Source of the DNA: Escherichia coli
Lineage (GTDB): Bacteria > Pseudomonadota > Gammaproteobacteria > Enterobacterales > Enterobacteriaceae
Assembly (NCBI RefSeq): GCF_029227855.1
Contig: NZ_CP074356.1
Direction: 5' to 3' (one strand)
Length of the DNA stretch: 64,000 bases
A program made the position numbers. Positions 25,701 to 28,700 of the stretch are shown here, piece by piece. Position 1 is the first letter of the stretch, and each line of letters starts with the position of its first letter.

Positions 25701-28700
25701 TATTGCCTGGGTGCCGCAGGCGCACGACGGCATTTTTGCTTTTAGTGTGCTGGATATGGTGTTGATGGGCCTGGCCCCCACCATAGGCGCTTTTTCCGTT
25801 CCCGGTAAGCAAGAACGCCTGAAAGCAACGGAGCAACTGGAAAAGCTGGGCATTTTGCATCTGGCGACACGACGCTGGAATACACTTAGCGGCGGTGAAC
25901 GTCAGCTGGCTTTAATCGCCCGTGCACTCGTCCAGCAACCGCGCTTGTTATTACTGGATGAGCCTGCCTCCAGCCTCGATTTCGGTCATCAGATCCAACT
26001 ACTGGACACGCTGGCGCAGCTCAAAAATAACGGCATGACAATGCTAATGTCGACTCATCATCCGCTCCATGCCAACGCCATTGCCGACAGCATTATCCAG
26101 GTAGAGCCAGATGGACGAGTAACACAAGGCTTACCGACCGAACAGTTAACAACGAACAAACTGGCTGCCCTGTACCGGGTTTCTGCCGACCAGATTCATC
26201 ATCACCTCTCTGCAATTAGCCACTAAGGAACAATCATGCTCATTGATGATATTGATTTTGCGGACCTTTACCTGCAGCAACTCAAACTGGCCCACCGCAC
26301 AGAAAAAACGCCGGCTCACTGGGATCAACGGGCGGAAAAAATGGCGGAAAATTGCGCCTCGCCTACGGACAGCTACCTGCAACAACTGACCTCAAAAATT
26401 GACCTGCAAGGCGCGCAAACCTTATTCGATATGGGCTGCGGACCGGGTACCGTATCGCTGGCGCTGGCGGCCAAACTCACGACGATTTATGGCGTTGATT
26501 ACAGTCAGGGGATGCTGAACGTTGCCGCCCGTCGCGCCGCCGCGCTAAAGGCAGACAATGTCCACTGGATCCAGCGCGCCTGGGAAGAGGACTGGAGTGA
26601 CCTGCCACGCTGCGATATTGCCGTGGCTTCCCGCTCCACTCTGGTGGCTGATATGCGCCAGGCAATGAGCAAACTGAATAATCAGGCACGGCTTCGCGTC
26701 TATACGACTCATCTGGTCAGCACCTCGTTCGTCTCTCCAGCCATTCAGCGGGCGGCTGGTCGGGAAGTGATCGAATTACCCAACTATATCTTTGCGCTCA
26801 ACGTCCTGTATCAGATGGGAATTTATGCTCACGTTGATTTTATCCGTGGACAAAATTGCCAACAGGATAACAGCACCTGGGAACGTTTTGAGCAGAACGT
26901 CAGCTGGAGTCTGGGCGCGCTTAACGACGATGAGCGTGAGCGGTTATATCGCTGGTATCAACAACAAGATGCTCGTGCCCTCGCCCCTGCCAGCCGCGAC
27001 TGGGCGCTCATCTGGTGGGATAGCGTACCGCAAGAGGCACTGCGATGATTTTCCTTTCTCAGGCACAAATCGATGCGTTACTTCTGGAAGATATCCAGGG
27101 CGGTGACCTGACCACGCGAGCATTAAATATTGGACACCAGCATGGCTATATAGAGTTTTTTCTCCGTCAGGGCGGCTGCGTCAGCGGCATTTCTGTCGCG
27201 TGTAAGATGTTAACTACGCTGGGATTAACTATTGATGACGCGGTCAGCGACGGTTCACAAGCGAACGCGGGTCAGCGGCTAATCCGTGCGCAAGGTAATG
27301 CCGCAGCACTTCATCAGGGATGGAAGGCAGTCCAGAATGTGCTGGAGTGGAGTTGCGGTGTTTCTGATTATCTCGCTCAAATGCTGGCGTTACTTCGTGA
27401 ACGTTACCCTGATGGCAATATCGCCTGCACCCGAAAAGCAATTCCGGGCACCCGCTTACTGGCCTCGCAGGCAATTCTGGCTGCCGGAGGACTGATTCAT
27501 CGTGCCGGATGTGCGGAAACCATATTATTGTTTGCCAACCACCGCCATTTTCTTCATGACAATCAGGACTGGTCAGGCGCAATCAATCAGTTACGTCGCC
27601 ACGCACCCGAGAAGAAAATAGTTGTTGAAGCCGACACGCCGAAAGAGGCAATCGCCGCGTTACGCGCGCAACCAGACGTACTTCAGCTCGACAAATTTAA
27701 TCCGCAACAGGCAACTGAAATTGCGCAAATAGCACCGTCGCTGGCTCCTCACTGCACGCTGGCTCTGACCGGCGGAATTAATCTGACAACACTCAAAAAT
27801 TACCTCGACTGCGGCATTCGCCTTTTTATTACCTCCGCGCCTTATTACGCGACACCGGCTGACATTAAAGTCAGTCTGCAACCCGCAGCCTCTATTTAAT
27901 TCTTTGTTAAACGGAATTTATTCTATGAGACTCAAAAAACGTTATCTCTGCACAGCATTATCACTTGCCTTTACCCAGCAAGCCGTAGCGGCTCAGGAGA
28001 GCGACTCGCTGACCGTATGGTCCAGTCCGGTATCATCGACGACGACCACCATTCTCGATCAACCCACCATGAAGGCCCTGGATAAACAGAATGTCGCTCA
28101 GGCATTAAGTGTCGTCCCCGGCGTGGTGCTGCAAAAGTCAGGCAGCCGCAACGAAGAACAGGTAAAAGTTCGTGGCTTTGATAGTCGGCAGGTGCCGGTC
28201 TATTTCGACGGTGTGCCCATTTATGTTCCCTATGACGGCAACCTCGATCTGGCGCGGATTCTGACCAACAATCTGGGGGCAGTCGAAGTTTCCAAAGGGT
28301 ATTCGTCGCTGCTTCAGGGGCCTAATCAGATGGGCGGAGCCATTAATATCACCACCCAGAAGCCAACAAAACCTCTGGAAGCAAATCTGGGATATCGCCA
28401 GGGATGGAGCCGTAGCCAGGACAATGCCTACGATATGCATGCTTCATTTGCCGCCAGCAGCGATCTGGGGTATTTGCAAGTCAGCGGTAGCCAGCTAAAG
28501 CAGGATTTTCTCGGCCTGCCGCATGGTGTAAATAATGATATTGCAGGCAAACACGGCAAGATGATTAATTCATCGGCTGATGATAAACGCGGCATTGTGA
28601 AGCTCGGTTTTACACCACGCGAAAACGATGAATACACATTGACTTACATTAAGCAGGATGGTGAAAAAGATAACCCGCCATACAGTGGAAATAGTGGTCA

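Follow-up and report, generated by a model that had tools for sequence, protein, structure and literature searches.

We analyzed a 64,000-nucleotide (nt) stretch of Escherichia coli DNA (contig NZ_CP074356.1, assembly GCF_029227855.1; hereafter the window), focusing on a six-gene operon that encodes an ATP-binding cassette (ABC) importer, a methyltransferase, the NadC-like protein ModD, and a TonB-dependent receptor. When K-12 was compared with the window by blastn, flanks of 97.6 to 98.2% identity were found on either side of breakpoints at 23133 and 29872, between which 6.7 kb of DNA stands in place of the 622-bp ycgY segment of K-12, in the treA/ymgE interval. The region is an accessory island, since K-12 lacks it while 2149 of 5426 complete E. 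coli genomes have it. The genome collection yielded 2152 island matches, 1167 of them at an identity of at least 99% and 983 at 95 to 99%; eight of the 2152 are plasmid borne and not chromosomal. The ycgY gene of K-12 was considered as a remnant of the island and rejected, as the two share no similarity.

The RefSeq annotation was read from strain JNEC-KY178, which is 100% identical to the window over 23400 to 29900. It gives the order treA, "iron ABC transporter substrate-binding protein," "FecCD family permease," ABC ATPase, "class I SAM-dependent methyltransferase," "ModD," "TonB-dependent receptor," ymgE, and ycgR. As shown in Table 1, the six genes between treA and ymgE are tightly packed and form one operon, in which TAATG and GTGA junctions are followed by a 9-nt gap, the ATGA junction, and a gap of 25 nt. 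The Shine-Dalgarno sequence of the binding-protein gene (CAGGA) lies at 23456 to 23460. Mechanical calling of open reading frames (ORFs) put the starts of the binding-protein and ATPase genes at 23427 and 25330, respectively, and both are over-extensions; if started at 23427, the binding-protein ORF would begin within the predicted ModE box described below.

A preliminary description of this DNA had proposed that an S-adenosylmethionine (SAM) methyltransferase gene and a ModD-like gene are translationally coupled inside a transporter operon. Both ORFs were indeed found with the proposed lengths and boundaries, placed between the ABC ATPase and the receptor genes, and RefSeq has the same six genes. 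In ctgcgATGAttttcc, the ATG of the ModD gene occupies 27045 to 27047 and the TGA of the methyltransferase gene 27046 to 27048. Such a stop/start overlap, either ATGA or GTGA, was present in 58 of the 61 related loci having both genes and is therefore not accidental. This arrangement is well suited to translational coupling within the transporter operon.

Table 1. Features of the operon and its upstream region (window coordinates)
Feature	Coordinates	Strand	Basis or remark
Accessory island	23134..29871	.	6.7 kb in place of the K-12 622-bp ycgY segment, treA/ymgE interval
-35-like hexamer TTGACA (putative)	23398..23403	+	TTGA conserved in upstream alignment of 11 species
Predicted ModE operator TTCGCTATATG-TGTAAG-TATATAGCGGT	23419..23446	.	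Core palindrome 23421-23444; 22 nt before ATG
Periplasmic substrate-binding protein, Peripla_BP_2 class	23469..24491	+	RefSeq start
Type II ABC importer permease, FecCD/BtuC fold, MolB-like	24491..25471	+	Best PDB match MolB; TAATG overlap with binding-protein gene
ABC ATPase	25468..26226	+	GTG start; GTGA overlap with permease gene
Class I SAM-dependent methyltransferase, 270 aa	26236..27048	+	Pfam, AlphaFold, family alignment, neighborhoods
ModD, 284 aa, NadC/quinolinate phosphoribosyltransferase (QAPRTase) fold	27045..27899	+	TIGR01334, Pfam, AlphaFold; ATGA overlap with methyltransferase gene
TonB-dependent outer-membrane receptor, 656 aa	27925..29895	+	RefSeq annotation

The assignment of the 284-aa protein to the ModD/NadC group was borne out at several levels. 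It matched TIGR01334 with 501.6 bits against a curated cut-off of 178.85 (residues 2 to 278 on profile positions 1 to 277), and Pfam recognized QRPTase_N (E = 2.9e-18) and QRPTase_C (E = 1.1e-31). Its AlphaFold model, with a predicted local distance difference test score (pLDDT) of 97.2, superposed on quinolinate phosphoribosyltransferases at a template modeling (TM) score of 0.86 to 0.89 and a root mean square deviation of 1.8 to 2.4 Å (Foldseek); a ModD structure was not found in the PDB. Against the NadC model TIGR00078 the protein scored 135.4 bits, below the cut-off of 198.4. To compare the active sites, 62 ModD sequences were aligned with E. coli NadC, with which they share the two-domain fold. 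NadC residues T-R-K (152 to 154), H175-R176, E215, D236, and G260 are kept in ModD, whereas K186 is replaced by Phe in 59 of the 62 sequences (Phe163 in the window protein), M234 by Gln in all 62, E118 by Trp, R119 by Lys, and N237 by Lys. The kept residues are those that bind the phosphoribosyl group and anions, and K186 is the important cationic, catalytic lysine of the quinolinate site. Judged from this alignment, ModD is not a quinolinate phosphoribosyltransferase, because the catalytic lysine is lost, and the ability to bind an anionic or phosphorylated ligand is probably retained. We know of no ModD with a characterized activity. Within a library of representatives at 50% identity, the fusion partners of ModD include ModC-like ATPases, a pair of Mop domains, and NifQ, which suggests that ModD functions in the trafficking of molybdenum inside the cell.

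The partner of ModD contains the motif FDMGCGPGTVS and matched Pfam Methyltransf_25/31/12/11 with E values of 9e-11 to 2e-6, in agreement with its earlier designation as a SAM methyltransferase. In our family alignment (A4), motif I (DMGCGPG) is invariant, as are motifs specific to the family, e.g., CDIAVASRST and RVYTTH. The AlphaFold model (pLDDT, 91.6) gave a Foldseek probability of 1.0 to many SAM methyltransferases; the nearest folds are small-molecule methyltransferases (YcgJ, TmtA/GtmA, MitM, and RebM/AtmM), superposed over the core only at a TM of about 0.5 to 0.57. Matches in NCBIfam did not exceed 43.6 bits and lay far under the cut-offs. Assignment of a substrate class from NCBIfam, a PDB sequence search, or Foldseek was rejected, as all three gave core-fold matches only.

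The enzyme pair invites a reading in which the system salvages a nutrient of the pyridine or tetrapyrrole type (a precursor of nicotinamide adenine dinucleotide, or a corrinoid), with ModD acting as a true phosphoribosyltransferase and the methyltransferase modifying the heterocycle. The NadC fold of ModD and its retained phosphoribosyl pyrophosphate-site residues would fit, the best though weak matches of the methyltransferase in NCBIfam and the PDB include the corrinoid-associated CpaM and CbiT, and the permease and ATPase also match BtuC and corrinoid ATPase models. Yet those methyltransferase matches score 20 to 44 bits against cut-offs of 78 to 180, and the substitution of the NadC catalytic lysine argues against such an activity.

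We next consider the transporter, which the preliminary description had called FecB type. This label did not hold. In NCBIfam, the Fec models FecB, FecD, and FecE scored 31.7, 194, and 151 bits, respectively, against curated cut-offs of 320, 406, and 375, and among solved structures the permease is closest to HI1471/MolB (2nq2; 222.8 bits), followed by FhuB (175), HmuU (168), and BtuC (146). Thus, the Fec/iron label is valid at the superfamily level only. The best PDB match of the binding protein is the uncharacterized 4pag (92.8 bits), and MolA (HI_1472; 3psa) matched with 34 bits over 73 residues. The signal peptide of the binding protein, MSLTRRRFTQIL (window 23469 to 23560), carries a twin-arginine-like T-R-R-R-F motif, which suggests export by the twin-arginine translocation (Tat) pathway and not by Sec. 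The receptor matched NCBIfam TonB-dependent receptor subfamilies, always under the cut-off, and falls in no curated subfamily. RefSeq annotates a plug domain in it, its homologues have the Pfam Plug and barrel domains, and the sequence DSLTVWS, which follows the signal peptide, was picked out by eye as a candidate TonB box. In a distant lineage, a full-length homologue with 32% identity is found together with the ABC and methyltransferase genes.

The RefSeq names of the binding protein and permease, together with weak matches of the receptor to siderophore and haem receptor subfamilies, would suit the uptake of an iron chelate (siderophore, citrate, or haem) whose chelator is tailored or recycled by the two enzymes. 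However, the iron-family scores all lie far under their curated cut-offs, MolB is the closest solved permease, and the neighbors found in relatives are Mop, TOBE, and ModE.

Regulation bears on both of these readings. Upstream of the operon, a palindrome, CGCTATAT-gtgtaagt-ATATAGCG, occupies 23421 to 23444, 25 bp 5' of the RefSeq start codon. It fits CGNTATAT-N8-ATATANCG with 0 mismatches and is the sole such match in the window. The E. coli ModE consensus has been given as ATCGNTATATA-N6-TATATANCGAT (quoted in PMC545781). When sites were scored by a simple consensus count out of 20, the predicted operator reached 17/20, compared with 14 for the next best site of the window and 16/20 for the validated modA operator of K-12 in the same scan. 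A ModE box of 15 to 20/20 was found at the same position upstream of the operon in about 50 of the cassette loci described below, and in almost all cassette loci it equals or exceeds the score of the K-12 modA operator. A total of 105 sites in 1.64 Mb of related loci scored at least 15/20. Ninety of these are directly upstream of a cassette or mod gene: 50 precede a binding-protein gene, 30 a receptor gene, 4 a methyltransferase gene, 4 a modA-like gene, and 2 modD. Another five, at 17 to 18/20, precede the mod-type operon of Pasteurellaceae, and the other 10 all score exactly 15. All sites of at least 16/20 precede cassette or mod genes. The upstream regions of 11 species are otherwise unalignable, with TTGA, the palindrome, and the Shine-Dalgarno sequence as the main conserved blocks; TTGACA at 23398 to 23403 is a putative promoter element. 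Since the box is conserved across loci and high-scoring sites are confined to cassette and mod genes, the comparison strongly supports placing the cassette in the ModE regulon, with ModE predicted to bind the operator.

No Fur box was found near the operon in a scan with the 19-mer consensus allowing up to three mismatches, and Fur regulation was rejected on this ground; a partial match (12/19) was seen by eye at about 23270. Likewise, a permissive Rfam scan of 22900 to 30500 returned no riboswitch or other Rfam family, and control by a cobalamin or molybdenum cofactor (Moco) riboswitch was rejected. Regulation, gene neighbors, and scores hence disfavor both alternatives. With no Fur box within three mismatches and conserved ModE boxes instead, iron-chelate uptake appears very improbable. 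Salvage of a pyridine- or tetrapyrrole-type nutrient, for which no cobalamin or other riboswitch was found in the scanned interval and for which regulation and gene neighbors indicate molybdenum instead, is improbable as well, if marginally less so. The sole Fur-box-like site of the window lies elsewhere, at 12364 to 12382 (GAAAATGATAACCAGTATC; 3 mismatches), in the 12000 to 12840 intergenic region upstream of an ORF at 12841 to 13977.

In Proteus, Morganella, Providencia, Pectobacterium, Serratia sp. H1w, and Shewanella (loci L003, L030-L042, L047-L067, and L086), the receptor gene is directly preceded by a second ModE-like box (16 to 19/20), which separates it from modD or from the methyltransferase gene. 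This second box is absent in E. coli, where the gap between the ModD and receptor genes is only 25 nt; the 30 receptor-gene sites come from genera with a longer gap.

The distribution of the cassette was examined by scanning one genome per species with an alignment of close relatives of ModD (A3), which gave 80 loci; the census is biased towards close relatives of E. coli ModD and thus towards the cassette type. All ORFs of the loci were compared with the six proteins of the window and with ModA, ModB, ModC, and ModE of K-12. In 53 loci, all six genes were present in the window order and on a single strand, and 2 more loci were cut by contig ends. These 53 fully contained loci represent about 15 genera, all Enterobacterales: Escherichia, Citrobacter, Raoultella, Serratia, Symbiopectobacterium, Yokenella, Enterobacter, Klebsiella (Klebsiella indica), Proteus, Pantoea, Affinibrenneria, Morganella, Erwinia, Pectobacterium, and Providencia. 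The cassette is hence a distinct and conserved gene combination. The possibility, raised in the preliminary description, that the methyltransferase and ModD genes occur free of transporters in most genomes was not borne out in this biased sample, in which 55 of 81 ModD loci have the cassette and 5 have the pair alone (Edwardsiella and Leminorella). In 10 loci (Yersinia, Cedecea, Pasteurellaceae, Gilliamella, and a Photobacterium), ModD adjoins ModB/ModC-like type I transporter genes, and in about 11 it occurs with none of these genes.

The contexts of the methyltransferase were informative too. In every context examined, it adjoins this transporter type, ModD, or both, and it accompanies the transporter even where ModD is absent: Shewanella, which keeps the cassette order, and L089 lack ModD, L087/88 and another contig have a DUF2478 gene instead, L091 combines it with Mop, and L090 has it with ModD alone. 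The ModD-less cassettes of L087 (5556 to 6101), L088 (2894 to 3439), and L089 (11940 to 12461) carry a gene for a small P-loop NTPase (Pfam DUF2478 or NTPase_1), which may be an alternative accessory protein. In four Edwardsiella loci, the methyltransferase-ModD pair is intact behind a ModE box with the transporter absent, which suggests for the pair a cytoplasmic role in molybdenum handling that is not strictly tied to this import route; at the transporter-free pair of Leminorella and L090, no box of at least 15/20 was found.

Genes of molybdenum metabolism recur around the relatives. A di-Mop (molbindin) gene is located just upstream of the cassette in Pectobacterium and after the methyltransferase gene in L091, a metagenomic relative, and genes for ExbBD-TonB and a TOBE protein adjoin the cassette of another. 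With its ModE box, its MolB-like permease gene, and relatives that stand beside Mop, ModE, and ModBC genes, ModD is genomically associated with molybdate transport and regulation. The L094 locus reads Mop-modABC-modA'B'-ModD-TonB receptor-ModE-Mop, and its ModD is 40% identical to that of the window. The L094 receptor was considered as a homologue of the window receptor and rejected, since no similarity beyond the fold was detected. A TonB receptor was therefore recruited to ModD/mod clusters at least twice.

Among known systems, the closest is MolBC-A of Haemophilus influenzae (HI1470-HI1472) with modD (HI1473), which likewise combines a type II, BtuCD-like importer with a Peripla_BP_2 binding protein and has modD adjoining the importer genes. 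The gene order of the H. influenzae cluster, modA-molCBA-modD-salX-cysU (PMC3928620), differs from that of the window; type I transporter genes (salX-cysU) come after modD there. A TonB-dependent receptor and a methyltransferase, both found here, are not listed for the cluster as described in PMC3928620, and MolA and the window binding protein are barely alignable (34 bits). Repression of molB by molybdate (PMC4031551) agrees with the ModE box of the window operon. MolBC-A has been described as the "secondary/low-affinity" molybdate-tungstate transporter of H. influenzae. The preliminary description had regarded the combination of these genes as atypical. This stands for the receptor and the dedicated methyltransferase, which are unusual, but not for ModD beside this importer type, which is already known; since the MolBC-A gene cluster contains modD, ModD is not outside its usual molybdenum context here. 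The ModABC(D) systems (modABC of E. coli and modABCD of Rhodobacter capsulatus) share with the window the ModE operator architecture just upstream of the first gene, but they possess a type I importer and an unrelated binding-protein fold, and neither an outer-membrane component nor a methyltransferase. ModD is an accessory gene in Rhodobacter-type mod operons (TIGR01334 description), and so it is in the L094 mod cluster. TonB-dependent uptake of non-iron metals is known from ZnuD (zinc) and NosA/OprC (copper), which resemble the system proposed here in pairing a receptor under a metal-specific regulator with an ABC importer. No molybdenum counterpart was found in the literature searched. Nor did we find a description of the cassette there, although regulon databases may contain predictions of it. 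While the MolBC-A/ModD kind of system is known, the receptor, the methyltransferase, and the predicted ModE operators would be the additions made here.

Our analysis showed how the genes are arranged, to which families they belong, that the cassette is conserved, and that the ModE box is both conserved and specific. On this basis, we consider it likely that the island encodes a ModE-repressed, TonB-dependent operon for the acquisition of molybdenum/tungsten. When molybdate is plentiful, ModE-molybdate would occupy the palindrome at 23421 to 23444 and repress transcription. Under molybdenum shortage, the receptor would carry a molybdenum species over the outer membrane, and the periplasmic binding protein, by homology, would pass it to the MolBC-like type II ABC importer. 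The cargo would be molybdenum and probably tungsten too. The methyltransferase and ModD, made at a fixed ratio via the ATGA overlap, would work in the cytoplasm, either on the species taken up or on molybdenum hand-over.

Several points weigh against this proposal. It infers that ModE binds the operator and that molybdenum is the substrate, as well as the chemistry of the enzymes. Nothing explains why an inorganic oxyanion would need a methyltransferase. An E. coli-type ModE box was not found in the distant cassettes L087-L089 and L091. MolA is a remote relative of the binding protein, at 34 bits, so that no ligand can be assigned to the latter by homology, and MolA itself binds molybdate weakly, at about 100 µM (PMC4031551 and PMC3928620). 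Finally, a receptor has no obvious need, because porins admit molybdate to the periplasm in the textbook view, as given in a 2021 review (PMC8264917).

The form in which molybdenum would be imported divides the evidence. A free oxyanion is favored by the wider contexts of ModD and by the MolA ligand, whereas the presence of a receptor, the class of the importer, and the small-molecule type of methyltransferase favor an organic molybdenum complex. In the latter variant of the molybdenum proposal, the cargo would be an organic molybdenum/tungsten chelate, namely, a foreign molybdophore of, e.g., the catecholate or pyridine-carboxylate type, whose ligand the methyltransferase would methylate and ModD would N-phosphoribosylate or bind, with release of the metal. 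Metal chelates are the typical cargo of a TonB-dependent receptor combined with a type II ABC importer. The modeled methyltransferase is similar to natural-product and small-molecule methyltransferases, the enzyme accompanies the transporter even without ModD, and ModD retains the TRK, HR, Glu, Asp, and glycine loop of NadC with an altered base pocket. Persistence of the pair without the transporter in Edwardsiella (with a ModE box), Leminorella, and L090 (no box of at least 15/20 found) speaks against a chelate, as does the occurrence of ModD with type I ModABC-like transporters or in fusions to ModC-like ATPases, Mop, and NifQ, where an organic ligand is unexpected. Moreover, MolA binds the free oxyanion (PMC4031551). 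We regard a chelate cargo as unlikely. The same holds for the bolder idea to which it leads, molybdophore piracy, to which we would give only a small chance: a molybdenum/tungsten complex would be pumped through a ModE-controlled TonB-dependent receptor in many Enterobacterales and its metal freed in the cytoplasm by a dedicated methyltransferase and a NadC-derived enzyme. If true, this would be a metal-release chemistry not described for any metal, operating in roughly 40% of E. coli strains with complete genomes as well as in Proteus, Morganella, Providencia, Citrobacter, and others.

If ModE-controlled acquisition of molybdenum is correct, an energized and regulated step, comprising a ModE-controlled receptor and its own type II importer, would be added to molybdenum acquisition, and the widespread "iron transporter" annotation of the island genes would be corrected. 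Studies of K-12 could not have revealed the system since this strain lacks the island. The cassette occurs in roughly 40% of the complete E. coli genomes and in many urinary and gut pathogens, and the system would be relevant to tungstate-based interventions and to the anaerobic respiration that depends on molybdoenzymes in the inflamed gut. In addition, ModD, a 30-year-old family, and the new methyltransferase family would gain a tractable genetic context in E. coli.

Some individual loci deserve mention. In Photobacterium damselae (L068), a solitary modD (8821 to 9828, minus strand) is divergent from the gene of a CobW/COG0523-type metallochaperone GTPase, and a 19/20 ModE box lies between the two at 9956 to 9983. 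Affinibrenneria salicis contig NZ_VYKJ01000001.1 contains two loci, L045 (143401 to 164240) and L046 (910889 to 931728), of 20.8 kb each, which are 100% identical and in opposite orientation; the cause is a large inverted duplication or else an artifact of assembly. A 3.2-kb contig (L005; JAIJJM010000374.1) of a "Collinsella sp." metagenome-assembled genome carries four cassette genes (ATPase, methyltransferase, ModD, and receptor) that are 99% identical to those of E. coli, and its actinobacterial assignment is most likely the result of bin contamination. Decayed cassettes were seen in several species (L016 in Citrobacter koseri, L007 in E. albertii, and L029, L050, L047, L057, and L060). In C. 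koseri, the ORFs of the binding protein, permease, and ATPase are fragmented, but those of the methyltransferase, ModD, and the receptor are intact; E. albertii has a split receptor gene, and protein P0381 of E. tarda is a fusion of an ABC fragment with the methyltransferase.

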